Below are positions 11,788 through 33,153 of a stretch of DNA of 64,000 bases, piece by piece. This stretch comes from Parcubacteria group bacterium Gr01-1014_20. GTDB taxonomy: Bacteria > Patescibacteriota > Minisyncoccia > UBA6257 > 2-01-FULL-56-20. The notes under the pieces were generated by a model. That model was not told the origin of the DNA. It made no database searches and saw only the letters and a list, made by a program, of their open reading frames with translations. The first letter of the stretch is position 1; every line of letters begins with the position of its first letter. The position numbers were made by a program, and so were the translations under genes. The stretch spans positions 1,945 through 65,944 of the forward strand of contig VMFW01000010.1 in NCBI GenBank assembly GCA_007376265.1, read 5' to 3'.

Positions 11788-11958
11788 GTTGGAGGTTAGC
11801 GATAGCGGATAGAGATATTTTTCCCGCTATTTTTCCGGTGTTTCTTTTTAGCCACTTTTTTCTTTTTGTTCATAACTAAAGTATATAACACAGCCGTACC
11901 GGACCAAAGTTTTTTACAATGGAATGGTCACGCTGGTCGGTTTTCTAATTAGCCCGAC

Positions 11959-12258
11959 CTAACGCAGGAAATGCCAAATGAAGAAGATGAAGAGAGCCAG
12001 TCCGCCGAGGATGGTATTTAGTAAAACAAAGTTGATACTTTTCTTGATGTTTGTGGATTCCTTGGTTTTAAGGAATACGAAGTATAGGAGAAAAAATAGG
12101 ATAACCGCGAAGATACTCTTGGTGGTCCAGTGATGGCCAGTGACGGCTTTGAGCGAATTTTTGAACGGTTCGGAAAACTCGGCCCAAATGGTAACCAGGA
12201 CTGTAAACCAAATGGTGCCTAACGTTGCATAAATAAGGGCGGTGATATTTTTGGTCAT
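11959..12258 (-). CDS. hypothetical membrane protein
   Basis: Three hydrophobic helices; no motif. Confidence 0.4.
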   Translation of the reverse strand: MTKNITALIYATLGTIWFTVLVTIWAEFSEPFKNSLKAVTGHHWTTKSIFAVILFFLLYFVFLKTKESTNIKKSINFVLLNTILGGLALFIFFIWHFLR

Positions 12259-12737
12259 TAAAGTGGTGGGGTAAGGTTAGTTTCGATGGCGCCGCGGAAG
12301 CCACTTGAGATAAGGTAGCCCATGCCAGCCATAGAGAAGGCGAGGAGAACGATAAGCCCGCAGAGCAAAATTATAGAAACTTTTAAGCCTTGGTCGCTAA
12401 TTATCATGTTGCCGTATTTTTTGATTAGTGACCAAGCAAGGATGGCCAGGAATGGGAGGAAGAGGAAGAGGTGCTCTTTGGTTTCCATCATTACGCCATG
12501 AGCCCACGGAGTCGGGCCTCCTTTAATAATGGGCTTTACGTTAGTACCGTAATAGTCTACGTAGTAAAAACCGCCAACAAGCCACGCGGCGAAAAACATA
12601 ACGACACCCAAGAGGGCGGCTTTTTTCGCCCTAGAGATCCTGGCTTCGGTTGGGTTCAAAAGTTCAACCAAAGCCCATAGGAAGGCTAAGGCACCGAATT
12701 CACCTAGGGCAATGTGGATACCTACGAGTGGGCTCAT
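12258..12737 (-). CDS. hypothetical membrane protein
   Basis: Four TM helices, 159 aa. Confidence 0.45.
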   Translation of the reverse strand: MSPLVGIHIALGEFGALAFLWALVELLNPTEARISRAKKAALLGVVMFFAAWLVGGFYYVDYYGTNVKPIIKGGPTPWAHGVMMETKEHLFLFLPFLAILAWSLIKKYGNMIISDQGLKVSIILLCGLIVLLAFSMAGMGYLISSGFRGAIETNLTPPL

Positions 12738-12804
12738 GATGGAATCGTTTTTTTCTGATGGCTACGCTTGTGTATCATAGCATATCTGGCGTTAAATTTT
12801 AGGA

Positions 12805-13356
12805 TCAGGCAGGTTTTTTCGAAATTTTTTGCCTGGTGCCGGCGGTGAGGGTGGGGGTGAAATATTTTTCAACTAGAGTTTCGAACTTTCTAATTAGGGG
12901 GTCGGAAATATTAAAAGGCTTGAAAACGGTAAGGGGCAGTAGAATTATCTCTTTATTGGGTTTTATAAAAGGCGGATGACTAAAACGGAAGTAGGGTTTT
13001 TCGACACAGTTTACAAAAATAATATTGGCTTCTTCCCAGTATTTGCGGATAATTGAAAGTTTTTGCAAGTCTTCGGCGTGACCCTTGGGGCTCCACCGGA
13101 ATTTTACCTCAACCAGATGCGGAAGATTTGTTTTATCGATCACGAAAAAGTCGGGTATGGCACGCATTTTTTCCGCCACTCTTGCATGTTTCTCGAAAGC
13201 CCCTGAAAGATTACTGCCGCCGTGCAAGATGGTTTCGTAACCAATTTTATAAACTGAATTGCCAGACTCTTTTAACAAATCGAAAACCAACGACTCGGCC
13301 ATGCGGCCTTTTAGATTAGTTTCCCGAGGTTCTTGTTCGACTTTAATTTTAGACAT
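12805..13356 (-). CDS. PD-(D/E)xK nuclease superfamily protein (Hjc/YraN-like fold)
   Basis: GRMAESLVFDLLKESG...PDFFVID...LVEVKFR matches the G..E...L...G...PD...D/ExK arrangement. Confidence 0.45.
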   Translation of the reverse strand: MSKIKVEQEPRETNLKGRMAESLVFDLLKESGNSVYKIGYETILHGGSNLSGAFEKHARVAEKMRAIPDFFVIDKTNLPHLVEVKFRWSPKGHAEDLQKLSIIRKYWEEANIIFVNCVEKPYFRFSHPPFIKPNKEIILLPLTVFKPFNISDPLIRKFETLVEKYFTPTLTAGTRQKISKKPA

Positions 13357-13366
13357 GTCCTTATAA

Positions 13367-13855
13367 TCAATACTCTAGTTTATTTACCCAGTCAGGAACT
13401 TTGACATCCACTGCACTGTCGTATTGCGGAGTATAGGGTTTCAAATCGAGGATGGGCGTATCTTTAATCACATCAAGCCCTCTTACGGTTACAACGCTAC
13501 CTTTAATACTCATGATTTTTGCTAAAGATAGGCCAATAGGATTGGGACGCCCTGGACAGCGACAAGCGAAAATACCGACCTCGGGCACCTCGCCGACTTT
13601 TCCCTGTGGCACGTGACGGATATCGCAGGTTTTCACATTGTGCATCCAGTAGATTACGAAAATATGGGAGTAATCGTCGAGTCCAGTCAATGCATCCTGA
13701 TATTCATCGTTGATGACAAGTTCGGTGACAACCTTATCCCACCCACCGAAGTGATCAATTTCCTGATTTCTAGCAAAACCGATGGTCTTGAGATTAATTT
13801 CCACAGTCAAATTATACGACAACAACCTCCTCTCAAGGAAGACCAGGTTTGCCAA
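13367..13855 (-). CDS. trmO: tRNA (N6-threonylcarbamoyladenosine(37)-N6)-methyltransferase TrmO (TsaA/YaeB family)
   Basis: GIFACRCPGRPNPIGLSLAKI...GLDVIKDTPILDLKPY is the YaeB signature. Confidence 0.85.
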   Translation of the reverse strand: MANLVFLERRLLSYNLTVEINLKTIGFARNQEIDHFGGWDKVVTELVINDEYQDALTGLDDYSHIFVIYWMHNVKTCDIRHVPQGKVGEVPEVGIFACRCPGRPNPIGLSLAKIMSIKGSVVTVRGLDVIKDTPILDLKPYTPQYDSAVDVKVPDWVNKLEY

Positions 13856-13897
13856 AATAGTCTAGGGGACGGTTTGGAAACAGACGGGTTTCCCGCC

Positions 13898-14386
13898 CTA
13901 CTCCAGAATTGGATTTTTTTGAACAAGCGGAGTTCTGGCCCACGCGCTACCAAAACCTAAGTACTTACCAGCGTTAGCTGTGGTAAACAGCAGGAGTAGG
14001 AGGCCGTAGATAATATGGTCGTCGAGTAATGGGTTATTCTCTGGCTGTATGCTCGCCAGATACATAAAGAGCATTAGAAGCGCGCCCGAGTAGCCCCCGA
14101 TGCGAACTCCAATCCCGAGTAGCAACGCCAACCCAATGAGTAAGAGACCCAACATAAAAAGCCAGTCAACGATCGGATTACCGGCCATCGCGTGAAAAGT
14201 TTCTACAAAAGGACCTTTGGCGGCGAACTTTAGAAATCCCAGGGTTGGGGAGCCTCCAGCCAACCAGGATTTTTCGGGCGCGGTGGCAAAACCAAGCCCT
14301 AAAAGTTTATCGACGAACGCCCACAAGAAAATCCAACCCATACCAATCCTCAATAGGCCGAGGATGGTTTTTGATTTGTTTTCCAT
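13898..14386 (-). CDS. DoxX family membrane protein
   Basis: Four-TM DoxX-like topology (LLRIGMGWIFLWAFVDKL...). Confidence 0.65.
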   Translation of the reverse strand: MENKSKTILGLLRIGMGWIFLWAFVDKLLGLGFATAPEKSWLAGGSPTLGFLKFAAKGPFVETFHAMAGNPIVDWLFMLGLLLIGLALLLGIGVRIGGYSGALLMLFMYLASIQPENNPLLDDHIIYGLLLLLFTTANAGKYLGFGSAWARTPLVQKNPILE

Positions 14387-14403
14387 ACACTAATTCTAGC
14401 AAA

Positions 14404-15459
14404 TTAGATGTTTTCGATTGATTCCCAGGGAAGACCGGGTTTGCCAAAGTGGCCATAGGCGGCCGTTTGCAGATAGATCGACTTCCGAAGATCGAGGCGC
14501 TCAATAATGGCTTTGGGCCGAAAATCGAATTTCTGATTGACCAGACTCGCAATGCTCTCGCCTTTTTCGTTCAGCGCTTCAACCATTAAGGGTTCGGCTC
14601 GGCCGATGGCGTAGGCGACGGAAACTAAACACTTTTCGGCGTGGCCGTTCGTCACTAAATTTTTAGCCACAAAACGCGCCATGTAGGCGGCCGAACGATC
14701 AACTTTGGTTGGATCCTTACCGGAGAAAGCGCCGCCGCCGTGAGGAACGAGACCACAATAGGTGTCCACCATGATTTTACGACCGGTTAGGCCAGCATCG
14801 CCAGCGAAGCCACCGATCACAAATTTGCCTGTAGGGTTAACGAGGATTTCAATGTCGTCTATGTGGCCAATAACTGGCCTTATAAGATTATGGATTAAAG
14901 CCTGCTTGATTTCGGCTTGAGAAACATTTTCGGCGTGCTGACAACTGACCAGAACAGTTTTGATTTTATCGCCGTGAACGGTGAGTTGAGCTTTGCCATC
15001 AGACCCTAGCCAATCAAATTTCCCACTCTTTCTCATTTTTTCTAAACCTTTGGTTAGGGCGTGCACCAGGAAAACACTTTTGGGCATAAACTCACTTCCA
15101 GGATTATTTTCGGCGTAACCGTACATAATGCCTTGATCCCCTGCCCCACCAGTATCGACGCCTTGCGCAATGTCGGGCGATTGTTTAACGAGGTGAGAGA
15201 TGATTTTGAGCTCGTCGGTGTAGCCGAGATTTTTATAAACATTTTTGGCGATTTCTTCAGCCTCAAATTTGGCGCTCGTGGTCACTTCACCGCCTATAAC
15301 TAGGAGCCCATGGGAACCCATGACTTCGACGGCGACGCGGCTTTTGGGATCTTGTCTTAGACATTCATCTAAAATCGCATCGGAGATTTGGTCGCAAACT
15401 TTGTCGGGATGACCAGAGGTAACGCTTTCAACGGTAAAAATACTTGGTTTGTAGAACAT
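14404..15459 (-). CDS. metK: S-adenosylmethionine synthetase
   Basis: ESVTSGHPDKVCDQISDAILD, GAGDQG and DTYGG motifs; 351 aa. Confidence 0.95.
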   Translation of the reverse strand: MFYKPSIFTVESVTSGHPDKVCDQISDAILDECLRQDPKSRVAVEVMGSHGLLVIGGEVTTSAKFEAEEIAKNVYKNLGYTDELKIISHLVKQSPDIAQGVDTGGAGDQGIMYGYAENNPGSEFMPKSVFLVHALTKGLEKMRKSGKFDWLGSDGKAQLTVHGDKIKTVLVSCQHAENVSQAEIKQALIHNLIRPVIGHIDDIEILVNPTGKFVIGGFAGDAGLTGRKIMVDTYCGLVPHGGGAFSGKDPTKVDRSAAYMARFVAKNLVTNGHAEKCLVSVAYAIGRAEPLMVEALNEKGESIASLVNQKFDFRPKAIIERLDLRKSIYLQTAAYGHFGKPGLPWESIENI

Positions 15460-15529
15460 GGGTTTATAAATATTGTTTGTAATCCTTCGACTGGCTCAGG
15501 ATATTTTCGCCTCAGAAAAAAATATTATG

Positions 15530-15700
15530 GGGGCGAAAATAAAAATCTTCCACGAGGAAGATATAAGTTTCGACGACTTTATCTTTCCTCGGAGTCCTTT
15601 CGGACCGAGGCTGGATTTAGCACCTTCTCTTTTTTACAAAGAGCGGTTGCTGGCGGGTCATCGAGCCAGAACTCTCGCCGCGCTCAAGATAAGCTATTAA
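15530..15700 (-). promoter_or_regulatory. SAM-I (S-box) riboswitch with its terminator in the metK leader
   Basis: The minus strand reads GCTTATCTTGAGCGCGGCGAGAG..CTGGCTCGATGACCCGCCAGCAACC...GGTGCTAAATCCAGC...GAAAGATAAAG. These are the S-box conserved blocks (P1 5' strand, kink-turn/P2 region and GGTGCTAAnTCC) with P1 closure. A terminator hairpin (CGAGGAAAGATAAAG...CTTATATCTTCCTCG plus a T-run) follows. Track ORF 15473..15700 is therefore spurious. Confidence 0.8.
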
Positions 15701-15832
15701 TATTAAGTTGTAATCTAATGATAGTTAAGTATCCCGGGTTGTCAATTAAACTTGTTGATAGCTCTACTGAATCTTAGAAACAAAAAACCGCCCCCAGGTT
15801 TTGCCAAAGGACGGTTTTTCGAAAATAGTGTT

Positions 15833-16030
15833 TTAGGCTCGCGCGACGTTTGTAGCGGCTGGGCCCTTTTCACCGTTGACGATTTCAAAGGTGACGGTAT
15901 CGCCAACTTTCAATTCATCGAAGGTTACACCATTAAGCTCCTTGGAGTGGAAGAAAAGGTCCTTTTCCTCGCCTTCGCGAGAAATGAATCCAAAGCCTCT
16001 ATCCGTGAGCGTTTTGATTGTTCCTGTCAT
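15833..16030 (-). CDS. cspA: cold-shock protein (CspA family)
   Basis: GTIKTLTDRGFGFI...FFHSKEL, the RNP1 and RNP2 motifs. Confidence 0.9.
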   Translation of the reverse strand: MTGTIKTLTDRGFGFISREGEEKDLFFHSKELNGVTFDELKVGDTVTFEIVNGEKGPAATNVARA

Positions 16031-16082
16031 TAATTTGTCTTGTTATGCTAGAAATTCGACCACATCTCTTAGTTTAAGTTCC

Positions 16083-16111
16083 ATTATAATACTTGGTTTT
16101 GATTCTGTCAA
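16083..16111 (-). promoter_or_regulatory. consensus sigma70 promoter for cspA (TTGACA-17-TATAAT)
   Basis: The minus strand reads TTGACAgaatcaaaaccaagtatTATAAT, ~50 nt upstream of the csp ATG. Confidence 0.55.
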
Positions 16112-16176
16112 TACACGCATAAATCCCCACCTTAGCGGGGATTTATGGGCTATTTTCTTGGTTTTTGGGGGTTTCG

Positions 16177-17745
16177 CTATGGGGTGGTCGTGAAGCTCGC
16201 TTCTACCGAGGTTCCAGCATTCATAGCAACATCTTTGGATTCAACTATGTAGTGGTAGGTGGTCGAGGCGACAAGACCGGTGAGATTGACGAGGTGAGTC
16301 ATGAAAGTGCCGGATGAAGAGACAAACGCGGCTACTCCCAGATTCAGCGGCGAGGTGGTGCCGTAGTAAACTTTGCTTGTGGCAAGTTCGTTGGTAGTCC
16401 AGCCAATCGATGCGCTAGTTGAAGAAAGGCTAGAAACGTTCACAGCTGAAACTATGGGGGCGGTTATGTCGGGTGTGGCGGTGGTAAGGACATTCTCACC
16501 GGATGTAGTTTTGTTGCCGGCCGCATCTTCAGTTTCAATCAGAAAATAGTAATTGGTGAATTGATTCAGACCGGTCAGGGCGACCGAGTGGCTGGTGACA
16601 AACGCAGTCATGGCGACGGAGGTGGCGGTAGTTAAACCAACCGGGGTGCTGGTCGCAAAGTAGACTTTGCTTTTGGCTGGCTCGTTAGTTGTCCAGTTTA
16701 CGGTTGCGCCGGAGACGGTAATGTTGGTGACGCCAATCGAAGAAATGGTGGCTGGCAAAGTGTCGGCCGCGGGGGTGGCGGTGGTAAACGAACCCTGGTT
16801 TGAAGTCACTTTATTCATAACGGCATCTTTGGATTCAACCATGTAGTAATAGGTGGTCGAGGCAATGAGGCCGGTTAGACTCATTGAGTGACCAGTTACC
16901 AGTAAAGAACTTTCGGTTGCAGTAGAAGAGGTGGTGACTGGTGAGGAGGTTGAGTAGTAAACCTTGGTTGTAGCGGCTTCGTTTGTGGTCCAACTGATTG
17001 TGGCACCAGAGATCGTGATCGATGTTGCAGCCAGCGAAGAGATGGTTGGAGCGACAGTATCTGGGGTTGAGCTGGGTTGGGGCCCGATTTTCTTAAGAAT
17101 GCCGGGCGGTAAAACCTGACAGATTGGAACGATGGGCTTGTCGTTTTTCTTCAACCAGCCTTTGGCGATTAAGTGGCCGGGTGGGACGATAATACAGAAT
17201 CCAGCCTTCCTGATGGCTCGAGTTGAATTATCGTTATCATCTCCATCGTCATTATCTTCATCATCGTCGTCATCTTCGTGCTGGGCTTTTTCGGCTTTGG
17301 TTAACCGATTTTCCTTAAGAAACTCATTGAGCTTCTTGAGGGTTTTGGGACCAACGATGCCAAGCTGGTCAATGCCGTGCTTAGCCTGAAATTTCATCAC
17401 GGCTTTGGATGTCAAAAGACCGTAATAACCCGTCACTAAACCTTCGGGATAGATATTCGGATCGGCGGCTAAAAGTACCTGGAGAACGGTAACATCGTCG
17501 CCCGAAGATCCCTGTCTTAAGCTTTTTAACAATTCCAGAACTTGGCCTTGCTGCTCAACTTGAAGTTCGACTGATTTTTTTTGGAGAGCTTTGATCTGGT
17601 TCTGCAGATCAAGGATCTGCTGGGTCAGCTGGTTAATCATTTGCAACTGAGTCTGGGCGGTCGAGGTTTGGGCCGACACACCAGCTGGAGCGATTGCCCC
17701 AAAACCTAGAGTTAAGACTAGAAACGAAACTATGTATTTTTGCAT
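16177..17745 (-). CDS. secreted protein with an N-terminal coiled coil, a peptidoglycan-binding domain, an acidic linker and four Fn3-like repeats
   Basis: Signal peptide; PG_binding_1-like block DDVTVLQVLLAADPNIY...GYYGLLTSKAVMKFQAKHGI; a poly-D/E linker; four ~95-aa repeats ending in ...TTYYYMVESKD... Confidence 0.65.
   Translation of the reverse strand: MQKYIVSFLVLTLGFGAIAPAGVSAQTSTAQTQLQMINQLTQQILDLQNQIKALQKKSVELQVEQQGQVLELLKSLRQGSSGDDVTVLQVLLAADPNIYPEGLVTGYYGLLTSKAVMKFQAKHGIDQLGIVGPKTLKKLNEFLKENRLTKAEKAQHEDDDDDEDNDDGDDNDNSTRAIRKAGFCIIVPPGHLIAKGWLKKNDKPIVPICQVLPPGILKKIGPQPSSTPDTVAPTISSLAATSITISGATISWTTNEAATTKVYYSTSSPVTTSSTATESSLLVTGHSMSLTGLIASTTYYYMVESKDAVMNKVTSNQGSFTTATPAADTLPATISSIGVTNITVSGATVNWTTNEPAKSKVYFATSTPVGLTTATSVAMTAFVTSHSVALTGLNQFTNYYFLIETEDAAGNKTTSGENVLTTATPDITAPIVSAVNVSSLSSTSASIGWTTNELATSKVYYGTTSPLNLGVAAFVSSSGTFMTHLVNLTGLVASTTYHYIVESKDVAMNAGTSVEASFTTTP
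16200..17060. repeat. tandem intragenic DNA repeats (~290 bp, roughly three units) encoding the Fn3-like modules
   Basis: Near-identical nucleotide blocks (e.g. gtagtaataggtggtcgaggc...) recur in phase with the protein repeats. Confidence 0.55.
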
Positions 17746-17867
17746 TTTTTTATTATTTTTATTTGTTTTTGATGTTTTTGACCTTTTTTCTCGATTTAGC
17801 GCGAGATTTCGCTTTATACTAAGGTGTTACGGGTTCCTTTTAGGAAAGTTACAGGCTACTGTAGATT

Positions 17868-18272
17868 CTACTTGATAAATAACACAGTGAGTAGGAGCAG
17901 GGTGAATTCGATGGCGGATACAACACACCAAGTGCAAAAGGCGCGGAGGATAAAGGCTTGGATAAAGGTGAAATAAATAGAAAAGACAAACCCGATCCAG
18001 ATAATGGTTGAAATGGGCGCAAAACTTGTGAGGCTACCAGATGAAAAAAGGAGGCTTAAAATCAAAATCACGAAGTACATTCCTAGGCCGGCATAAGGAT
18101 TGGGAATCCCAAGTGTGCGACTAAATTTGCTCTCCTGAACTTTTTGGCACCACTCGGGCGGGAAAAATAAGCATTTGACTGGGGTTTTTCTGTAGGCGTG
18201 ATAGCTTAGGTAGCTCGTGTTAACGATGCCGATAACTGACAAGACGATGATTATTAAAACATTCAAATCCAT
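17868..18272 (-). CDS. second VKOR-like membrane protein, stand-alone
   Basis: Four TM helices with a CTWC active-site-like motif and a loop Cys pair (CLFFPPEWC). Confidence 0.55.
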   Translation of the reverse strand: MDLNVLIIIVLSVIGIVNTSYLSYHAYRKTPVKCLFFPPEWCQKVQESKFSRTLGIPNPYAGLGMYFVILILSLLFSSGSLTSFAPISTIIWIGFVFSIYFTFIQAFILRAFCTWCVVSAIEFTLLLLTVLFIK

Positions 18273-18297
18273 AGATTTATTATACTCCTTTGGTTAT

Positions 18298-18371
18298 GGT
18301 CGGGCTGCCGGGAATCGAACCCGGTCTTCACGAACCCGAATCGCGCGTACTACCGGTATACTACAGCCCGT
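18298..18371 (-). tRNA. tRNA-Pro (anticodon CGG), CCA encoded
   Basis: Cloverleaf CGGGCTG...anticodon loop UUCGGGU...GGTTCGATTCCCGG-CAGCCCG-A-CCA, with the C1:G72 pair typical of tRNA-Pro. Confidence 0.85.
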
Positions 18372-18400
18372 TACGATATACAGATTATAGGAAAGTTGTT

Positions 18401-18829
18401 TTATTTGCCAGTCGTGCCAAAACCACCACGGGTTTTGTTGCCCATGACTTTAGTTTCTTGCCAGTCGGCTCTTTCAATTTTTACGAAAGTGCCTTGGGCA
18501 ATGCGCTCACCACGCTCAACTAAAACGGGTTTGCTGGTGAAGTTGTAGTAGGCGGCTTTCAGCTCATCTTCATCCCCGGAGTAGTCGGGATCAACGATGC
18601 CAATACCGTTCGCTAAAAGCAAGCCTTTTTTGTGCGTGGAACTCCTAGCGGCCACCAAGAGAAAATACCCTTCGGGAGTTTCGATGGCATTGTTAAGCGG
18701 GATGTAGGCAACGCTACTGGGCTGGATTTCCGTAGTCTCCCGTGCGTACAAATCAAAAGCGGCGGCTTTTTCGGTCTTGTGCTCGGGCAAGGGCAGATCC
18801 GGGTGGAATCTTTTAATGCGAACTTTCAT
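18401..18829 (-). CDS. dut: dUTP diphosphatase (trimeric dUTPase)
   Basis: dUTPase motifs AAFDLYA, ARSS, GIVDPDYSGDE and RGGFGTTG. Confidence 0.9.
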   Translation of the reverse strand: MKVRIKRFHPDLPLPEHKTEKAAAFDLYARETTEIQPSSVAYIPLNNAIETPEGYFLLVAARSSTHKKGLLLANGIGIVDPDYSGDEDELKAAYYNFTSKPVLVERGERIAQGTFVKIERADWQETKVMGNKTRGGFGTTGK

Positions 18830-18876
18830 TGAGCTTAGTTTACTAGAGTTTTAGAAAATAAAAAGAGCCCTATTCA

Positions 18877-19230
18877 TTAGGGCTCTTTGGGCCAGTTTTT
18901 GCAAGACCTCTGAATATTTTCAATCCAGGATTTTGTGGCATGGTGCCAAAACTTGTCGAAACACTTTTGACACTCAACAACGACTATACCAATTTTCCAA
19001 TAATCAGAGTCTTTGGGCAGGGGAAGTTTTGACTGAAGTTCAAATCCAACTATGCAATCATTCCTCTGTTCAAGCTCTTTAATGTTCTTAAGATCTTCAT
19101 ACATTCTCCAGCCGCATTTAACACAACACAATGCTGACGAATAGGTGGCGATATGATAATCAACGCCCCAAGACCGAAGAACCGGCTTAGTCATTTGATG
19201 CTTCTCCTTTATTTCTCTCTTCCGCTTCAA
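18877..19230 (-). CDS. Cys-rich hypothetical protein, 'SWGVDY' family paralog 1
   Basis: 117 aa. It shares SWGVDY...C.C..G...DCIVGF...IECxKCF..FWxH with the adjacent paralog. A terminator follows downstream. Confidence 0.5.
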   Translation of the reverse strand: MKRKREIKEKHQMTKPVLRSWGVDYHIATYSSALCCVKCGWRMYEDLKNIKELEQRNDCIVGFELQSKLPLPKDSDYWKIGIVVVECQKCFDKFWHHATKSWIENIQRSCKNWPKEP

Positions 19231-19537
19231 TCACATCAGGAATCATCTGCTCCCAGACATGAAACCAGAAATTGGCGAAGCACTTGGGGCATTCTATGAC
19301 AATGATGCCTTTTTTCCCGGGATTAGCGGGATCTTCCGGATTAGAAGTTGAAAATCCAACAATGCAATCTCGCCAGTCTTTGAACCTATGGGACATATAT
19401 CCAAACATAAACCAATCGCCATTAGGACAGGCACATGAGGGCGAATAGGAGCACCCTTGATAATCTACACCCCAAGACTTTGAGACTTTGGTCACACCCC
19501 CTCCTTTTCTGCTTTCAGCAATATACCCAGTCAACAA
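19187..19537 (-). CDS. Cys-rich hypothetical protein, 'SWGVDY' family paralog 2
   Basis: 116 aa; the same motif set as paralog 1. It overlaps the 5' end of paralog 1. Confidence 0.5.
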   Translation of the reverse strand: MLTGYIAESRKGGGVTKVSKSWGVDYQGCSYSPSCACPNGDWFMFGYMSHRFKDWRDCIVGFSTSNPEDPANPGKKGIIVIECPKCFANFWFHVWEQMIPDVIEAEERNKGEASND

Positions 19538-19548
19538 GAAATCGTCAA

Positions 19549-20864
19549 CTACTTTACGTGGTGTTTGGATTTTATTTTGTCTTCTTCTTCGGATTCGTAC
19601 TCGAGTTTGGTTTCTTTGGCTTTTTCGGACATGGCTTTTAATTCTTTTTCGGAGAGCTTACTTAACTCTTTGACGCGAGATTCGAGGTGTTCGCGAGTGT
19701 TTTTTTCGGGATCGTCTAAAACTTCTTCTAGCAAGATGGATAGAATGTAGCCAACTTTGGGACCAGGATCAAGTTTGGCGATCTGCATCACGTCAGCTCC
19801 GTTGACTCTTAACATCTTCGGGGAGATGGGATCGCTTTTGACCTTATCAATCATGAAGAGCAAGTGGCGGAGCTTGTAGGGTACAGCTTTCGGGACGCCG
19901 GAGCCGATGCGATCGGCTTCACGGACTTTGATTAAATCGTCGATATTTTCCGGACTGACGCGGGCGAGAAAACGGCGGACGCCAGCGGCGGTGACTTCGC
20001 CCACGTTGTAGTAGAAGAGATGGTGGCGAACCAAGTGAATTACTTTTTCACCGAAGTCCTTTGGAAAACGTAGGCGATCAACGATTTGGGCAGCAATACG
20101 ACCGCCAACAACTTCGTGGCCATGGAAGGTGGAATCTGGGCCGTCCCCTCTTTTGGTGGCGGGCTTGCCAACATCGTGCAGAAGTGAGGCAAGGCGGACT
20201 AACAATGAATAGTTTTGTTTGGCGGTGTAGGCGAGCGCCCGGACGTTGTGTTCGAAGACGGTGTAGATGTGATGCTTATTTTGCCCGCAACCCAAACCAT
20301 CACGAAGTTCGGGAACTATATTCTTAAGAAGATTGAGTTCCTCGAGAAGAATAATGCCTTCTGCCGCGCCGTCGGCCATCAAGATTTTTATAAATTCATC
20401 GCGGATGCGCTCTTTGGCGATAGTCTCCAAAAGGCCGGCATTTTTTTCGATGGATCGGCGAGTGTTCAGATCGATCTGGAAATTGAGCTCGGTGGCCAAT
20501 CGAACGGCACGCATTAAGCGGAGCGCATCTTCCCCAAATCTCTCATCGGGGATGCCGACGGTTTTGATTATATTTTCTTTTAAATCTTTCTCGCCGCCGT
20601 AAGGATCAATGATTTTGTCGAACTTGCCTTTAGCAAAATTGATGGCCATGGCATTCACGGTAAAATCTCGGCGAGATAAATCTTCTTCAATGCGAAAATT
20701 TTTTGGATTTCTTCTGGCTTAGCGTTAGTGGCAACATCCCAATCCTTTGGATCGCGATTTAATAAAAGATCGCGAACACAACCACCCACCAGATAAGCCT
20801 GGTAACCAGCTTTTTCGAGAGTCTCGGCAACAGATTTTACTTCGTCGGGAACCTCTAGTTTCAT
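19549..20864 (-). pseudogene. cca: CCA-adding enzyme (tRNA nucleotidyltransferase) split into two frames; the head-domain segment between GGxVRD/DxD and RRDFTxNAMA is missing
   Basis: ORF 20655..20864 encodes ...YLVGGCVRDLLL...DWDVATNAKPEEIQKIF and then runs into a stop. One frame over, the sequence reads NFRIEEDLSRRDFTVNAMAI and continues through the HD domain (19549..20658). About 45 aa, equivalent to Bst CCA residues PKTIDVG...VTFVRS, are absent, and the junction sits at an A6T4 run. Confidence 0.6.
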
Positions 20865-20968
20865 TTATTGCTTAATTGAATTCTAGCGGAAATACCCGTG
20901 AAAATAAACTTGCTTTGAGTTATTGTGGTGATAGACTTTAAGCGGCACTTTAAAAAAAAGGGGGGGGT

Positions 20969-21220
20969 ATGTCATCAAGATGGTTAATGACGGATAGTAC
21001 AAAGCGTTATCTTGACGGCTTAGCGCGTAGCCTTAAAGTGGCTGGAATGGACGAGTTGGCCGTAGAGCTTGGATTTGAAAATGCCCAGGATATGGCGGAT
21101 CGAAACGGATTCGTCAATATCTATGCCTATTTTTCGGCACCCGGGAATGCCGAGCGCTATATCGAAATTGAGTGTGTGTTGATCGAAAAGAGGAAGGGCG
21201 CAGAAGTAGTCCCGATATGA
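20969..21220 (+). CDS. hypothetical small protein (83 aa)
   Basis: ORF followed by a strong terminator; no motif. Confidence 0.35.
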   Translation: MSSRWLMTDSTKRYLDGLARSLKVAGMDELAVELGFENAQDMADRNGFVNIYAYFSAPGNAERYIEIECVLIEKRKGAEVVPI

Positions 21221-21236
21221 AAAATTACAAACGAGC

Positions 21237-21267
21237 GAGGCCGTTCCAATGGAACGGCCTTTTTGTT
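21237..21267 (+). terminator. Rho-independent terminator
   Basis: GGCCGTTCCaatGGAACGGCC followed by TTTTTGTTT. Confidence 0.65.
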
Positions 21268-21322
21268 TGCAAAATCCTTGGAGGGTGGTAAATTTTGAGT
21301 AGAAACTCAACAAGGGAGGAAT

Positions 21323-21520
21323 ATGGGTGACGTTCACTATCCGAATATCAAAGAGTGCCCTTGCTGTTACAGGAGGCGCGGAAGAATACGCAGTATCTTA
21401 GGGATGCTCTGGTGGAAGGCTGGTTTTGTGGTTTCGGATCCAAACCGAAGAACCGAAATGGATCGACTGGCTGAGGACAAGCTCGCGCGGATCAACCGGG
21501 GAGAAATTCCCTATTCTTGA
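21323..21520 (+). CDS. hypothetical small protein (65 aa, Cys-containing, Arg-rich)
   Basis: AGGGAGGAAT RBS before the ATG; first gene of a three-gene mini-operon. Confidence 0.35.
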   Translation: MGDVHYPNIKECPCCYRRRGRIRSILGMLWWKAGFVVSDPNRRTEMDRLAEDKLARINRGEIPYS

Positions 21521-21536
21521 AAACTGGAGGAGGAGT

Positions 21537-21705
21537 GATGCCGACTAAGAAGGCCAAGAAAAAACCGAGAAAAAGCAGGCGGCGAAAATCTAAAGTGCAG
21601 GAAGCGCTTACAGAGCTTGCGGACGCAACTCGGAAAAGCGGTGCCAAGTCGATGTTTATCAAAAAACCAACCATCAGGAAGAAGGATCAGGGAACCAGAG
21701 AGTAG
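21537..21705 (+). CDS. hypothetical very basic small protein (~56 aa)
   Basis: GGAGGAGGAGTG RBS before ATG 21537; Lys/Arg-rich N-terminus. Confidence 0.35.
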
Positions 21706-21727
21706 TGGAAAGTGAGGTGAGTTCATT

Positions 21728-21910
21728 ATGCCTTTTGTGACTGCAATTGCCTCGAGCCAAAGGGGTGAGCTAGCGGTTTTCACACTGCCGGATGATGAGG
21801 CGCGTGACCTAGCTAATCTTCTCGGAGTGAAGTGGGCGGAAGACGAAATGTCATCCAGCTTGAGCATCATGAAGATCAGCATGAAGAGGTGTGACCTCAA
21901 GAAATCATAG
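21728..21910 (+). CDS. hypothetical small protein (60 aa)
   Basis: AAGTGAGGTGA RBS before the ATG; a terminator follows. Confidence 0.35.
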   Translation: MPFVTAIASSQRGELAVFTLPDDEARDLANLLGVKWAEDEMSSSLSIMKISMKRCDLKKS

Positions 21911-21916
21911 TCACCG

Positions 21917-21951
21917 ACAAGCCGGTCTGCGGAAACCGGCTTTTTGTTTGC
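21917..21951 (+). terminator. Rho-independent terminator
   Basis: AAGCCGGTctgcggaaACCGGCTT followed by TTTTGTTT. Confidence 0.65.
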
Positions 21952-21975
21952 CGATTCAAGCGATACAATTTACCT

Positions 21976-22855
21976 GATGGCACTTTTGGGGATCTTCTTT
22001 GCGGTCGCAGCACTTGTTTCCTGGGGATTTGGGGATTTTTTTATTCAGCGAGCGACCCGTCAGATTGGGGTTTGGCGAACTTTGTTTTTTATAGATTTCG
22101 CGGCGGCTCTCTTTTTTCTTCCTTTTATATATGAAGAGATCGGGCCAACGTTTTCTAACGGGCGCGGAATGTTTCTTCTCACTGCCGCGGGGTTAGTGAT
22201 TTTTTTAGCGGCGCTCCTGATTTTTAAGTCATACAAAGACGGAAAGTTGGCGATAGTTGAACCCATACTAGCGTTCGAGTTGCCCGTGGTGGTGGCTTTA
22301 GGAATTTTCACGTGGGGTGAAAAACTAAGCGTGATAGAAATTCTTTTGATTGGGTCGGTTTTTCTTGGAATAGTGCTCGCGATTACAAAACACCACACTC
22401 ATCTGCATTACCATAAACGAATTTTTGAGCGTGGTGTGGTGTGGGCGGTTTTGGGAGCAATCGTGATGGGGCTCGGGAGTTTTTTGCTAGGAGTTTCGAG
22501 CCAAGAAACATCTCCCCTCTTTACCATGTGGTATACGAGCTTAATCAGTGTGATTCTTTGCCTTTTCTACATGGTTCCCAAAGGCGAAGTTAAAAAATTG
22601 ATAAACGACTTAAGAGCGCACAAAAAATCAGTGATTAGTCAGGTGATTTTAGACAACGCGGCATGGACTTTTTACGCATTTTCAATGACTTTAATTCCGA
22701 TCTCGATTGCGACCACCATTTCTGAAAGCTACATTGCGCTCTCGGTTGTGCTTGGAATTGTGGTGAATCATGAGAAAATCCAGAGGCATCAAAAAATTGG
22801 AGTGGCCCTCGCGATAGCGGGGGTTATTTTCTTAGGGATGGTGACGGGTAAATAA
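21976..22855 (+). CDS. DMT-superfamily (EamA-like) transporter
   Basis: About ten TM helices with two EamA-like halves. The start is placed at MALLGIFF, downstream of the terminator. Confidence 0.7.
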
Positions 22856-22905
22856 AAAGCTCCGATCGAGGTGATCGGAGCCGATATTGAATCTAAACCA
22901 CAGAA

Positions 22906-23520
22906 TCAGCCTCCATCCCCTAGCCCACCCAATCTTCCGGTGCGGGTTTTTTTTATTGAAGGGGGCGGGGTTGATTTTTTACAGACTCTTTCGATAATTT
23001 CAATCTCAGCGGCTGGCTTGGTAACGGTCGTAACAACTAAGACTTCAGCGCTTTCGGAGTAGTGAAAATCTCCTCGGGAGTAGATGACGGCTTTGATCAT
23101 ATAAAAACCGGCGAAATCGCAGTCGGGCGGGCCAAGGTCGCTGTTCCAAATAACACTAGGATTTGAGTCGTGGAGAAGTTCGAGATGCGTTTGCAGCTCG
23201 ATTCTTCCATGTCGGGGACAGGGGTCATCGATATAGAAGTAACTTACACAACCAGCGTCTTCGGATGCCTCAAAGACCCAAACCACGGAATCAATGCCGA
23301 ATTTCTTTTCGATCTCGCGCACATCGCTTGGAGCTAGAGAAATTTCGATAGTTCCCATTACAACCGTGATATCTCCGTTGGGACAGTCGAAAGTGGTACT
23401 GGGAGCCACAATCGGATGATAGGGAATAACGTTCGCATACTCCATTCGAGAGTCCGATGACTGATTAACCACCAGCGCCGAGATGATTGCAATAAACGCA
23501 ATCAAGACGATTCTTTTCAT
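22906..23520 (-). CDS. secreted hypothetical protein
   Basis: N-terminal signal peptide; several Cys residues; no motif. Confidence 0.45.
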   Translation of the reverse strand: MKRIVLIAFIAIISALVVNQSSDSRMEYANVIPYHPIVAPSTTFDCPNGDITVVMGTIEISLAPSDVREIEKKFGIDSVVWVFEASEDAGCVSYFYIDDPCPRHGRIELQTHLELLHDSNPSVIWNSDLGPPDCDFAGFYMIKAVIYSRGDFHYSESAEVLVVTTVTKPAAEIEIIERVCKKSTPPPSIKKTRTGRLGGLGDGG

Positions 23521-23610
23521 GCACCCTCCTTGGGCTAAGAGTGAGATGTTGTTTCAGACAGAAATCTTAATCTACTACGGATATACTAGTTTTTTGGAGG
23601 GAGAAGTCAA

Positions 23611-24753
23611 TTACCTTACGTCGGCGTCAAATTGCTTTTTAGTTTCTTCGATAACTTTATCCTGAACGGGTTCGATTTCGTCGATGGTGAGGGTACGTTC
23701 GTTAGAGCGATAGATGATTCGATAAGTGTAGCTGATTTTATCCCCGCCGAATTTTTCGGCGTTTTCATATTTATCTAAAAGAGAAACTTCCTCGACGAGG
23801 TTGCCGCCGAGGTCGCGGATTAAATCGAAGTAGTCGTTGGGCGCGAAATCATTTTTAACCACAAAAGAAATATCGCGGGTGATGGGCGGGAATTTGCTGA
23901 CTTCTTTGAAGTGGGTCCCAAGTTTCAATTGGCGTTTGACGCGATCGTCTTCAGACCACAGCAAACGAATATCAGGCAGGTTCATACTTAAAATCGCCAA
24001 GCGTTCTAAACCGAAACCGAAAGCCCAGCCGTTATAGATCTTGGAGTCCACGCCTAGGTTATCTAAGACGCTAGAGTGAGCCACGCCGCTCCCCAAAACT
24101 TCAACCCAGCGGCCATCGATTTCAATTTCCATCTCTAAACTGGGATCGGTGTACGGGAAGGTGTCTTTATTGAAACGATACTTGATATTAGAACCGAAAA
24201 TGGACTGGGCGATTTTAATTAAAATGTCTTGTAGTTCTTTGACGCCAAGCTCTTGCTCGCTACGCTTACAGATATAGAGGCCGTCCATCTGATGAAAGAC
24301 GTTCATGTGATTGCGGTCAATTTCGTCCTTGCGATAGACCTTGCCATATGAAAGAAGACCGAGGGTTTCGCCTTTTTTCACCCTTCCTCTAATTTCGGGA
24401 AGGGTGAGGTAGTAGTACCACATGATGGTGGTGTGAGTGCGAAGAATGTAGTTATCGTTTAAGTAGTAGGTATCGGAATGACTGCGGGCTGGGTGATCGG
24501 CGGGGAAATTGAAAAGATCGAAACTTTCTTTAACTGGGACGATTTCGGGGTCTTTGATGACGTCAAAATCCTGGAAATCGGGAATGGCTAAGATTCTCTT
24601 TACAAGTTCGTGAATGGGGCTCTCCTCTTTGCGCGAGAGGTCCGGCATTTTCAAAAATCTTTTTAGTCGTTCGGACTCTGGGTCGGTGCGTTTTTCGAGC
24701 CCGGAGAGAAGTTCTTTTTCTTCCTTAGACTCAACGATTATTTCTTGGCGCAT
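23611..24753 (-). CDS. pheS: phenylalanine--tRNA ligase alpha subunit
   Basis: Class II aaRS motifs FNFPADHPARSHSDTYYL...LRTHTT...GFGLERLAIL. Confidence 0.9.
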   Translation of the reverse strand: MRQEIIVESKEEKELLSGLEKRTDPESERLKRFLKMPDLSRKEESPIHELVKRILAIPDFQDFDVIKDPEIVPVKESFDLFNFPADHPARSHSDTYYLNDNYILRTHTTIMWYYYLTLPEIRGRVKKGETLGLLSYGKVYRKDEIDRNHMNVFHQMDGLYICKRSEQELGVKELQDILIKIAQSIFGSNIKYRFNKDTFPYTDPSLEMEIEIDGRWVEVLGSGVAHSSVLDNLGVDSKIYNGWAFGFGLERLAILSMNLPDIRLLWSEDDRVKRQLKLGTHFKEVSKFPPITRDISFVVKNDFAPNDYFDLIRDLGGNLVEEVSLLDKYENAEKFGGDKISYTYRIIYRSNERTLTIDEIEPVQDKVIEETKKQFDADVR

Positions 24754-24799
24754 AGTAAAGGTATCTTAACTAAGTGACCAAAAAAAATCAAAAAGCCGC

Positions 24800-25297
24800 T
24801 TACGAGATTTTCTCGTAAGCGGCTTGGGGAACTTTACTTTCTGGGCTGGGAGCCAAGAGGAGGCGGGCCCGATCTAGGATCCAGCCGTAAATCCAACCAG
24901 TGGCCATACTCCAGATTAAAAACATGAGCGATGCGGCTCCAATTTGGCGCCCGGAAACCTGGAAGATGATAGCGCAGAGGATGTAGATCGGAATTTTGTA
25001 GAGCGAGAGGGAGAGGCCTTCGGCAATGGATTTGCGAACAATGTGTTCGGATGTGCCGAGAAGAAAGGCTCTCAATTGATTGGTGAGCTTCCCGCAAATT
25101 CTCGCCCCAGGAACAGCCAGGAGAATATAGAGAAGGCGAACCTTCCAGAACTGTTCGATCTTAACATCGAGGATCCAGACTTCACTCACGAGAGTGACGA
25201 TGCCACCAATGATGATGCCGTAGACAACAAAAGCAATCGTGTCGGCGGCGATGTACTTCAAGGCCATCCTCCTTAGTTCGCGGACTGTTTCTATCAA
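24800..25297 (-). CDS. hypothetical membrane protein
   Basis: Four TM helices, 165 aa. Confidence 0.45.
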   Translation of the reverse strand: MIETVRELRRMALKYIAADTIAFVVYGIIIGGIVTLVSEVWILDVKIEQFWKVRLLYILLAVPGARICGKLTNQLRAFLLGTSEHIVRKSIAEGLSLSLYKIPIYILCAIIFQVSGRQIGAASLMFLIWSMATGWIYGWILDRARLLLAPSPESKVPQAAYEKIS

Positions 25298-25397
25298 GTG
25301 ACCCTCCTTGGAAATTCACTGGTACCAAAAGACAATGAGCTCCTGCGATGTTACAGGAAAATGGTCTATAAAGCAATCTAAGATTCTTGAATCTTAA

Positions 25398-26087
25398 CTA
25401 GGGGTTAATTAGCTCGTAGGCAACGATTTTTAGATTGTTTTTGTAACTAGTATCGTAGGTCCCGTCGAATTTATAATCTTTGGGAATTTGGATTGAAAAC
25501 CTGTAATTTAGTCCCCTGGTCAGTTCTTTGGGGTTGTGGATAAAAGCAACGAGTTGGTTATCGTTGATCTGATAACTCTTGGCGGTGGGGATGTTTTTGC
25601 CCTGCATTAAAAAAACGTGAGGTTCCAGACAGGTGGCGCAGAACTTGCCGGTTGGGCATGGTGGACATTCGTAGATACTGCGAACCTGGGCTTCGGTGTT
25701 GTAGGTTCCTTCTAGCAAGCTGATGGTGTTGATTTGCCGAATGGTATAGAGAGGCAAGCTGGCTTGGGGTTTTGGGAGTGAAAGAACACAGATGCCCGAA
25801 AGGCACTTGGGGTTCGGTGTTTCACAAGATGAGGTTTTCGCGTAGTCTGGGCAAAATTTTATCGCTCCCTTTTCATATCTAGGTAGAGAGAATTTATTGA
25901 GAGCGGTTCCACAGTGGTCGCAGTTTTTAGCGATAACGACACAATCAATATCTGAGAGACACGCCTGGTCGTCCGGATTGATGCTCACGATTTCTTCAGG
26001 GAAGATCTTTTCCTTGGATAAAAAAATAAAACCAGATGTACCCGCGAGGACACATACAACAGAGATAAACAAAATTCTTTTTTTCAC
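25398..26087 (-). CDS. secreted Cys-rich hypothetical protein
   Basis: Signal peptide and ~16 Cys, including CPPCPTGKFCATC. Confidence 0.45.
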   Translation of the reverse strand: MKKRILFISVVCVLAGTSGFIFLSKEKIFPEEIVSINPDDQACLSDIDCVVIAKNCDHCGTALNKFSLPRYEKGAIKFCPDYAKTSSCETPNPKCLSGICVLSLPKPQASLPLYTIRQINTISLLEGTYNTEAQVRSIYECPPCPTGKFCATCLEPHVFLMQGKNIPTAKSYQINDNQLVAFIHNPKELTRGLNYRFSIQIPKDYKFDGTYDTSYKNNLKIVAYELINP

Positions 26088-26100
26088 GATTTTTATTTTT

Positions 26101-26265
26101 GTATGTGGCTGGGGTGGGGAATCTCACGTCGCCTCGCATTCGCGAGACTCTTTCAAAACCCTCGGTTTTGAATTATTTCCGACACGGGGAAAACTTTCCT
26201 TTTCCCCGACCCCCTTTTGCGTTCGATCCTCAGCCAATAAAGTTTTTTTGGGGGGGATGGTCTTG
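26101..26265 (-). mobile_element. tRNA-Met-associated miniature element (copy A), bounded by a second copy of the tRNA 3' end
   Basis: A 23-nt direct repeat of the tRNA-Met 3' end (GATTCCCCACCCCAGCCACATAC) sits at 26101-26123, against the original at 26266-26291. Internally there is an antisense T-arm fragment (GGCTGAGGATCGAAC), the hairpin GGGGAAAAggaaagTTTTCCCC and GCGAGGCGACGT. The element is homologous to copy B at 56881-57036. Confidence 0.45.
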
Positions 26266-26270
26266 GTATG

Positions 26271-26344
26271 TGGCTGGGGTGGGGATCGAACCCACGACCT
26301 TAGCGTTATGAGTGCTACGCTCTAACCAACTGAGCTACCCAGCC
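26271..26344 (-). tRNA. tRNA-Met (anticodon CAT; elongator type, G1:C72), CCA not encoded
   Basis: GGCTGGGTAGCTCAGTTGGTTAGAGCGTAGCACTCATAACGCTAAGGTCGTGGGTTCGATCCCCACCCCAGCCA; no C4/C5 lysidine-type acceptor determinants. Confidence 0.85.
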
Positions 26345-26384
26345 GTCAGATAAATTTTTATCATTAAAAGGCGTTTTTGACAAT

Positions 26385-26645
26385 TCAGACTCTAAAAACT
26401 ATAATTCGCACGCGGGTTGGTGGAAGAGTTACCATAGGAGCCCCATAAGCTTCAGGAGTCGGTGCGAGTCCGGCACCCGCAACACGCTTCGGTTTTCTCT
26501 TTTTAAGGGACGGCTCGCACTTTTCCGGCGAAAGTGCGGCCTGTATCTCACCGCTATGGTCCCGATCTATTATCGGGACACCAAGCCATAGCGCTTCCGA
26601 TAACCCCTTAAAAAGAGAAAGCCTCCGCTATCCAATTGGAATTTA
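26385..26645. ncRNA. candidate structured RNA or miniature inverted-repeat element: a perfect 16-bp long-range inverted repeat enclosing two strong hairpins (class unknown)
   Basis: TTTCTCTTTTTAAGGG (26473-88) pairs perfectly with CCCTTAAAAAGAGAAA (26584-99). Inside are a 12-bp hairpin (26491-26520) and a nested 8+7-bp hairpin (26531-26572). The ~260 nt has no ORF and lies between a terminator and tRNA-Met. Confidence 0.3.
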
Positions 26646-26677
26646 TAAAAAAGCCCCAGACTCGTGTCGGGGCTTTT
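26645..26677. terminator. Rho-independent terminator downstream of the NYN-domain gene (the hairpin also reads as a terminator on the + strand)
   Basis: AGCCCCagactcgtgtcGGGGCT flanked by an A-run upstream and a T-run downstream. Confidence 0.6.
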
Positions 26678-26683
26678 GGAAAT

Positions 26684-27640
26684 TTAGCTTTCTGAAGTGA
26701 CTCTCTTCACAGGCATAAGATTGATGGCCGCGGGATGGGCTCGGTTAGGGCGATAATATTTAAAGACGGTGACTCCGCCAATCACGACGGCTTTTTTCTC
26801 GATGAGCCCCTTGTCAGCAATAGCTCCCATAGCGGCTTCTAAATCTTCCTTGGTGTATATCTCTCCCCACTGATCAATGATGCCTTTCCAGGCTAAGTTG
26901 ATAATGTGACGAAAAGGATATTGGTTTCTTTCGGGCGTGGTGAGTTCAAAGACTTTCCGAACGACAACCTTGATGAAAGCAATGGCTTGTCTGGTCTCCT
27001 CATGAAGACTGGTTTCACCCCTTGCGACTAGTTCGAGAATCCTAGAAAATTCCCGTTTGCGGGAATCGAACAAGAGGGTCTCTCCACCGCCGTCCTTATC
27101 GTTTATTTTATCTCCCAGATCAGATGGGCGAAGAATAATAACTTCTTTATCCATGTCCTCGATGGGGTGGATAAAGTTGGGATCTTTAAAATCACTGTCG
27201 TCGCTAACCACAATAATCTTTTTTACCAGGGAATTTCTGGCAAGAGATAACCCAGACGATTTGAGATAGGAATCAACCTGATCGCGATCCTTTAGCCCTC
27301 TCGGACAAATCACCACTTTGAAACCAGCGTTATTGAGAGAGTTTATCAACCGAACTTTTCCCTCAAATTCGGGATGAGCTTCCTCGTCGAAAAGTTGGGC
27401 AGACAAGAAAACCTCAGCGAAAGCTACCGTCCCAAAGCTTCGACAATAATCCCTTAGCTTCGTGAAGGAAACTTTATAGCTGGCTTCGCTAGCACACAGA
27501 ACGACGTTGTCGAAGTCCACCAGGATTGCGACTAAATTGTTACTATCGGTACCGTTTTCGGTCTTTGAATCGCCGGGGGTTCCGATCTTAGCGACTTTAG
27601 GAAAAAGCCAGGCGACAAATCTATCAGCAATATTGCTCAC
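26684..27640 (-). CDS. NYN-domain (LabA-like) predicted RNase with a C-terminal OST-HTH/LOTUS-like region
   Basis: N-terminal LVAILVDFDNVV is the NYN start-strand motif; the ~90-aa C-terminal helical domain resembles OST-HTH. Confidence 0.5.
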   Translation of the reverse strand: MSNIADRFVAWLFPKVAKIGTPGDSKTENGTDSNNLVAILVDFDNVVLCASEASYKVSFTKLRDYCRSFGTVAFAEVFLSAQLFDEEAHPEFEGKVRLINSLNNAGFKVVICPRGLKDRDQVDSYLKSSGLSLARNSLVKKIIVVSDDSDFKDPNFIHPIEDMDKEVIILRPSDLGDKINDKDGGGETLLFDSRKREFSRILELVARGETSLHEETRQAIAFIKVVVRKVFELTTPERNQYPFRHIINLAWKGIIDQWGEIYTKEDLEAAMGAIADKGLIEKKAVVIGGVTVFKYYRPNRAHPAAINLMPVKRVTSES

Positions 27641-27760
27641 ACTCGAGCCTCCTTTTTGATTTTCCAGTTGTATAAGAACCGTAGGGAAGAATAAATTTTT
27701 TTCTTTCTTTTGTCAATTCGAGGTTTAATTATATGAGGATTTGTGTTAGAAAAAACATAG

Positions 27761-29005
27761 ATGAAGAGAAAACTAGCAATTTTGGGTTTTGGCCAGGAGG
27801 GAAAATCTTTACTCAAGTTTTTGAGGAGGTCACCAAAATTCAAGGGCTCAAAAATTCATATCCTAGACAAAAAAGATGGTAAGGATTACTTGTCTCAAGT
27901 GTTCTCTTTCGACCTGATCTTTCGATCACCAGGAGTACCCTATAACCTACCTGAGCTCAAGTCGGCCCGAAGGAGAGGGGTGGAGTTTTCGAGTGGAACG
28001 AAAATATTTTTTGAAGAGTACGGAGGTAAAATTATTGGCATAACGGGGACGAAAGGGAAGGGAACCACTTCAACCCTGCTTTGCAAAATTCTTCAGGCGG
28101 CTGGGAAAAAAGTCTTACTAGCCGGAAACATCGGAAAGCCAGCGATTGATTTTTTAAAGAACGGAAAAAAATATGATTGGGCAATCCTAGAACTCTCCAG
28201 CTTCCAACTTCAAGATTTGAACATCTCACCCACGATAGCAGTAGTTTTAGACGTCTTTCCCGATCACCAAGATGCTCACTTAAATCTAAAAGAGTACTAC
28301 GAAGCTAAGGCGAATATCGGGAAGTATCAAGGGAAATCTGGCCGGGTTTTCTTTTTTTTGGACGATAAAAATTCGGGAAAAATCGCTTCAAAAAGTCCAG
28401 CTCGAAGAATAGGGGTGAATTACAGAAAATTTAAACTTTTTAATCCGCAGGAGTTAAAAATACCAGGACTGCACAACTTCAGAAACGCGGTGATGGCGGC
28501 AAATGTGGCTTTTTCTTTGGGGATAGCTGCCAAGACTATCAAAAATGTCGTTACGAGATTTAGAGGATTGGAACACAGGCTTGAATTCGTTAAAAGGATT
28601 GGAAGACTCAATTTCTTTAATGATTCGGCCTCAACTAATCCCCACACTACAGCGGCGGCGATTGGATCGTTCCCTGGTGTGAAAAAAATTTTAATCGCGG
28701 GCGGAAGAGACAAAGTCGATGACTACTCTCCCATCCAACGAGCTTTAAAAAAACATGGGATTCACGCAGTAATTCTTTTTGGAGAGAATAAACATAGGCT
28801 CCAGAGGGTGGCGAGAGACTTAAGCAAAGTGAAGTTGGCCGGAAATTTAAAAACGGCAGTAAGAATGGCTGTCGGGGAAGCGAAGATGGCGGGAGGAGAG
28901 GTGTGCGTAGTTTTTTCGCCAGGATCCGCGAGCTTCGATATGTTCCGAAATTACGCTCATCGAGGAGAGGAATTTAAGAAGTTGGTCAAAAAAATAAGAT
29001 TTTAG
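27761..29005 (+). CDS. murD: Mur ligase, probably UDP-N-acetylmuramoylalanine--D-glutamate ligase
   Basis: ITGTKGKGTT P-loop, Mur ligase middle and C-terminal domains; MurD-like size (414 aa). Confidence 0.7.
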   Translation: MKRKLAILGFGQEGKSLLKFLRRSPKFKGSKIHILDKKDGKDYLSQVFSFDLIFRSPGVPYNLPELKSARRRGVEFSSGTKIFFEEYGGKIIGITGTKGKGTTSTLLCKILQAAGKKVLLAGNIGKPAIDFLKNGKKYDWAILELSSFQLQDLNISPTIAVVLDVFPDHQDAHLNLKEYYEAKANIGKYQGKSGRVFFFLDDKNSGKIASKSPARRIGVNYRKFKLFNPQELKIPGLHNFRNAVMAANVAFSLGIAAKTIKNVVTRFRGLEHRLEFVKRIGRLNFFNDSASTNPHTTAAAIGSFPGVKKILIAGGRDKVDDYSPIQRALKKHGIHAVILFGENKHRLQRVARDLSKVKLAGNLKTAVRMAVGEAKMAGGEVCVVFSPGSASFDMFRNYAHRGEEFKKLVKKIRF

Positions 29006-29056
29006 AACTAGCGGCGTTTTGCATTTAGGGCGACTAGCGATTACAATCAGTTTACG

Positions 29057-33147: not shown

Positions 33148-33153
33148 GTTTTT

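Follow-up and report, generated by a model that had tools for sequence, protein, structure and literature searches.

In the window analysed here (the whole stretch of 64,000 nt from Parcubacteria group bacterium Gr01-1014_20), the cca gene lies on the minus strand and is divided between two open reading frames (ORFs), an N-terminal ORF of 69 aa (20655..20864) and a C-terminal part (19549..20692) that is read in a different frame. The N-terminal ORF, read from 20864 to 20655, begins with MKLEV and proceeds to DWDVATNAKPEEIQKIF, after which come 12 out-of-frame residues and a stop; its in-frame portion, counted from the ATG at 20864, is MKLEVPDEVKSVAETLEKAGYQAYLVGGCVRDLLLNRDPKDWDVATNAKPEEIQKIF. 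One frame over, the gene restarts at (KNF)RIEEDLSRRDFTVNAMAI, also written (KNF)RIEEDLSRRDFTVNAMAINFAKG..., and stays open across the HD domain until a stop at 19549. The change of frame falls within CAAAAAATTTTCGCATTG. The original prediction had described a split gene with its junction in this very sequence and with the palm segment between the DxD motif and RRDFT missing, and all of these points were borne out by the ORFs and by Pfam: in the PolyA_pol head model (PF01743, 126 positions), the N-terminal fragment corresponds to positions 1-39 and the C-terminal fragment to positions 86-125, and positions 40-85 are absent.

The 5' part of the gene (20693..20864, minus strand) consists of codons 1-57, starting with the ATG at 20864..20862, together with base 1 of codon 58. 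Motif A is located here, including both metal-binding carboxylates of the GGxVRD...DxD pattern (LVGGCVRDLLLNRDPKDWDVAT, here GGCVRD...KDWDVAT). The 3' part (19549..20692, minus strand) extends from the third base of codon 108 to the TAG stop at 19551..19549. It carries motif B (RRDFT, following the RRD pattern, in EEDLSRRDFTVNA) and motif D (EDALRLMRAVR, following EDxxR...R, in GEDALRLMRAVRLA), and Pfam placed 3' of the head portion the PolyA_pol_RNAbd neck, the HD domain (LLHDVGK) and the tRNA_NucTran2_2 tail. No further lesion was found in either fragment. What is incomplete in the window is the head: the beta-strands that follow motif A, among them the IEVTTFR strand, are lost, as is the flexible loop preceding motif B.

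The out-of-frame tail of the 69-aa ORF (20655..20692, minus strand) reads ALKKIYLAEILP before its stop, where the true frame is IEEDLSRRDFTV and includes motif B. In GenBank, the 3' part is annotated as a protein of only 366 aa (TSC81922.1), which appears in nr as 'Uncharacterized protein' and matched the window ORF with 100% identity over 366 aa in a protein search. The 69-aa ORF (TSC81923.1) is named 'putative domain HDIG' in nr; this name is wrong, as the fragment holds nucleotidyltransferase motif A alone. Both entries come from a contig of 73,096 nt of Parcubacteria group bacterium Gr01-1014_20.

Intact alleles of the same gene

The 90%-identity protein cluster that includes the fragment from this metagenome-assembled genome (MAG) has a second member, a protein of 488 aa (P0121) from an ENA assembly. 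Its gene is located on contig ERZ27284378:k139_253711 (L004), a MEGAHIT-style contig of 59,843 nt. When this contig was aligned to positions 9549..30864 of the window, there were no mismatches and no other gaps in 21,316 aligned nt, with the sole exception of 151 extra nt (10173-10323 of the contig; AAGACAGTG...GCGGAAAT, the 3' end of which is also written GTTTGCGGAAAT). These bases are lacking in the window exactly between positions 20693 and 20692. The 5' part of cca (172 nt) is 100% identical to positions 10001-10172 of the contig, and the 3' part (1144 nt) to positions 10324-11467. Re-insertion of the 151 nt into the window gives the 1467-nt coding sequence of the ENA contig base for base, with 488 uninterrupted residues.

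The same allele was found in a Logan contig of 2973 nt, SRR8863434_15376 (L006), which is 100% identical to the ENA contig, the 151 nt included, and 100% identical to the window, the 5' part of cca among it, on either side. It passes both breakpoints without branching, and its reading frame for the enzyme is open over the N-terminal 343 residues. Three further Logan contigs of run SRR8863434 are 100% identical to the window at 797..13239 (L005), 18308..19932 (L007) and 26158..36001 (L008). Taken together, the identity of these five contigs means that the 151 nt are the only difference across window positions 797..36001 (35.2 kb). Within cca, contigs L006 and L007 do not overlap and leave a gap of 52 nt (19933..19984), far from the 151-nt site. 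This gap may be due to low coverage or to a local variant in SRR8863434.

At the breakpoint (20692..20693, minus strand), the left flank ends with ...CAAAAAATTTTCG and the right flank begins with CATTGAAGAAG, so that the deposited sequence reads TTTTCG joined directly to CATTGAAG. The junction is blunt: microhomology at the breakpoints amounts to 0 nt, and the 6-mers shared within 40 nt are all out of register. Deletions by slippage do not typically leave such a junction, and slippage between direct repeats was rejected. There are no N characters in the window, hence no scaffold gap is visible. Since 151 equals 50 x 3 + 1 (50 codons and one nucleotide), a single gap explains both the lost residues (58-108) and the change of frame. 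In these respects the original prediction has to be corrected, because it had estimated about 45 missing residues instead of about 50, and had placed a separate frameshift at an A6T4 run. This run (20695..20704, minus strand) ends 2 nt upstream of the breakpoint and is of identical length and sequence in the intact allele, and a homopolymer slip is thereby ruled out as the lesion.

Exact look-ups were also carried out for the broken form and for its neighbours. In an incomplete gene index of ENA, Logan and NCBI sequences, no record existed for the 69-aa ORF or for the 366-aa fragment (P0009); as the GenBank MAG itself is missing from this gene-position index, absence of the deletion allele there is weak evidence. 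The exact 40-mer of the left flank gave 0 matches in JGI metagenome contigs and 0 in GTDB representative genomes. Look-ups of the 495-aa GatA ORF and of a 574-aa ORF (51057..52781) returned no record, probably because the called start codons differ.

Judged from its sequence, the restored gene (1467 nt, 488 aa) would encode an ordinary class II CCA-adding enzyme with a nucleotidyltransferase head and neck and an HD domain. In Pfam, the restored protein matched PF01743 over positions 1-125 of 126 (131.8 bits), as expected of a complete head and as seen in the two alleles with identical flanks, together with PF12627, PF01966 and PF13735. The HD pattern (H...HD...D) is present, with scores of 39-41 bits for PF01966 and 29.9-30.6 bits for TIGR00277 (HDIG), both above the cut-offs. 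Its best matches among solved structures are CCA-adding enzymes (6ibp, E = 2.9e-52; 1miv, E = 4.4e-48), and the match with E of about 3e-52 spans residues 11-225 and thereby the segment that the window lacks, with an exact IEVTTFR. The closest known proteins are class II CCA-adding enzymes with a C-terminal HD domain, for example the CCA enzymes of Planococcus halocryophilus (6ibp) and Geobacillus stearothermophilus (1miv) and the E. coli multifunctional CCA protein. The restored protein shares with class II CCA enzymes the PolyA_pol head, the PolyA_pol_RNAbd neck, the HD domain and the tRNA_NucTran2_2 tail as well as the motifs GGxVRD, DxD, IEVTTFR, RRDFT, EDxxR and HD. Unlike these enzymes, the gene as deposited lacks residues 58-108 and is frameshifted. 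The NCBIfam equivalogs NF009814 (272.5, cut-off 290) and TIGR02692 (272.7, cut-off 438.8) are the top-scoring families for the restored protein even though both scores are below the curated cut-offs, so that its CCA-adding rather than CC-adding, A-adding or poly(A) specificity is assigned by similarity only.

Relatives, gene neighbourhood and tRNA genes

The segment is retained in each of the nine closest full-length homologues (488-509 aa, 81-90% identical in aligned columns); it comprises about 51 residues between ...QKIF and IEEDLSRRDF with the consensus PDSVYENDFGTVGVKT...KLKVIEVTTFREEGKYTDRRHPDEVKFAKT. Similarly, PF01743 was found in 119 of the 120 best database matches (464-594 aa), the sole exception being the MAG's own fragment. 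CPR bacteria have reduced genomes, and in other phyla CC addition and A addition can be divided between two enzymes; nevertheless, the naturally minimised head domain that had been considered for this lineage is excluded by these two surveys. That this CPR lineage characteristically has a minimised or split CCA enzyme, or uses programmed recoding, is scarcely credible; no frameshift could make good the 50 missing catalytic residues.

The gene neighbourhood is syntenic with that of the relatives, in the order EamA transporter, small ORFs, cca, small ORFs and dUTPase. Directly downstream of cca in the window, two tandem overlapping paralogous ORFs of 117 and 116 aa (18877..19537, minus strand) share the motif SWGVDY...C..C...DCIVGF...EC.KCF..FW. 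The motif is cysteine-rich and zinc-ribbon-like in appearance, and neither ORF had a Pfam match. The relatives have other small genes at this place (PhdYeFM-antitoxin-like in loci L001 and L003), which indicates that the slot between cca and dUTPase is variable. On the other side, the stretch that separates cca from the EamA transporter contains a cluster of small ORFs of 83, 65, 62 and 60 aa (20944..21910, plus strand), with an A8G8 homopolymer pair ahead of them (aaaaaaaagggggggg, about 20944..20959). Here, too, the related loci L001, L002 and L003 differ in their ORFs.

By use of ARAGORN, seven tRNA genes were identified in the window. After the acceptor stem and discriminator base had been located for each of them, encoded CCA was found in those for Pro and Gly and was missing in the other five (Ala, 2 x Met, Asp and Arg). 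The counts thus differ from the four of five tRNAs originally proposed to lack CCA. Template-independent addition of CCA to tRNA 3' ends is the predicted activity of the restored protein, and a need for it is implied by these five tRNAs. A hidden Markov model built from the alignment of the relatives, when used in a six-frame search of the 64-kb window, matched the two cca fragments only and revealed no second cca. Loss of the enzyme should be lethal, given that five of seven tRNAs lack encoded CCA and that the window offers no other cca. The two tRNA-Met(CAT) genes are divergent and 66 nt apart (26270..26344, minus strand; 26411..26483, plus strand), both without encoded CCA. As their acceptor stems are not alike, the pair probably comprises an initiator and an elongator, or else includes an Ile-lysidine tRNA.

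Origin of the 151-nt gap

The surprise which the original prediction had voiced at a true null allele, and its suspicion of mis-assembly, proved well founded, as both the ENA contig and the Logan contig, otherwise 100.000% identical to the window, carry the 151 nt and an intact frame. We consider it likely that the 151 nt were lost through a local error of assembly or scaffolding when the deposited scaffold, probably an idba_ud product, was built, and that the cca gene of the organism is ordinary and intact. In favour of such an artefact are the bluntness of the junction, the lack of any other change in the gene, the fact that the Logan contig does not branch at either breakpoint, and the expectation that the enzyme is essential. 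In the proposed course of events, idba_ud assembly or scaffolding would have abutted two sequence ends and dropped the 151 intervening bases. The loss would have removed residues 58-108, and with them the IEVTTFR strand and the loop leading to motif B, and would have shifted the frame by one base, and the annotation pipeline would consequently have called two fragments of 69 and 366 aa.

What has been reported about the probable source of the scaffold is consistent with this explanation. In project PRJNA512237, reads were assembled with idba_ud under default parameters into contigs and scaffolds and bins were deposited, with no curation step described (PMC6730927). Run SRR8863434, a Greene County run, is one of three PRJNA512237 runs from Ohio groundwater behind an endosymbiont named after Greene County (PMC11549363). 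The MAG probably comes from the same project, considering that Gr01-1014 in its name may stand for Greene County, a 0.1 um filter and October 2014, and that exact matches to this run were found. In exact-protein look-ups, matches for this organism came from the ENA contig and the SRR8863434 contigs only. Another public source run should also have yielded the organism in Logan, which points to SRR8863434 as the MAG's own sample. The three assemblies therefore appear to be views of one set of reads, and we infer that the gap arose in the assembly and not in the cell.

Local assembly errors of this kind have been documented for IDBA-UD, with 13 in one CPR genome of 1.13 Mb (Chen et al., 2020, Genome Res., PMC7111523). 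This corresponds to about one per 87 kb, and one error would thus be expected in the 73-kb scaffold. The present case is an isolated discrepancy (1 in 35 kb) which would likewise yield an incorrect protein-coding gene. We also examined the overlapping or adjacent pairs of same-strand ORFs at 45559-46628, 53176-54362 and 57630-59351 for further split genes as signs of assembly error and found none; according to Pfam, these regions contain distinct genes. Among them are an N_methyl pseudopilin (45559..46137), PilO (53176..53778) and PilN (53790..54362), which are type IV pilus or pseudopilin markers in a long run of same-strand ORFs at about 43998..55541 (minus strand), and a sigma-70/ECF-type sigma factor at 57630..58094.

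An unlikely alternative is that the 151-nt deletion is a real allele, present in part of the population or dominant in one sample, and that it gives either a null or a headless protein of 366 aa. In this case, idba_ud would have taken the deletion path, and MEGAHIT and Logan the intact path. De Bruijn (k-mer) assemblers normally need reads that span a junction, and different assemblers may pick different arms of an indel bubble. Moreover, the three assemblies are presumed to share a sample; were the ENA and Logan data from different samples of Greene County, a genuine allelic difference between samples could lie behind the 151 nt. On the other hand, the Logan contig spans both breakpoints unbroken, the two products that the deletion creates (69 and 366 aa) are on record in none of the ENA and Logan assemblies covered by the incomplete index, the junction is without microhomology, and five of seven tRNAs need CCA addition in a window without a second cca. 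As there is not one SNP in 35.2 kb, any deletion allele would have to be extremely recent. Because the deleted segment includes the conserved IEVTTFR, which aligns to the IEVTTFR of 6ibp, such an allele would be predicted to be catalytically dead. We regard as rather improbable the fuller version of this idea, in which a very recent deletion in a subpopulation leaves cells without CCA-adding activity and reliant on a host, a neighbour or an unlinked enzyme, with a headless neck and HD protein of 366 aa perhaps made from the ATG at 20649..20647.

It is very improbable that cca carries two lesions, an in-frame loss of about 45 aa and a slip at A6T4, as a decaying pseudogene tolerated through a second cca: the junction does adjoin the run, but the length of the run is unchanged in the intact allele, a single 151-nt gap suffices, the rest of the gene equals the intact allele base for base, unlike decay, and the 64-kb window has no second cca.

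Taken together, the evidence favours an assembly artefact, and reading this organism as a cca null is most likely wrong. A real deletion would amount to a null allele that is either lethal or complemented, and its general interest would be limited. The case calls for caution, since a scaffold that was probably built by idba_ud without curation has placed two most likely spurious proteins in nr (TSC81923.1 and TSC81922.1), and the deposited gene could suggest, wrongly, that a CPR bacterium has lost an essential enzyme of tRNA maturation. Conclusions about gene loss in reduced CPR genomes, whether metabolic or translational, need independent assemblies or reads.
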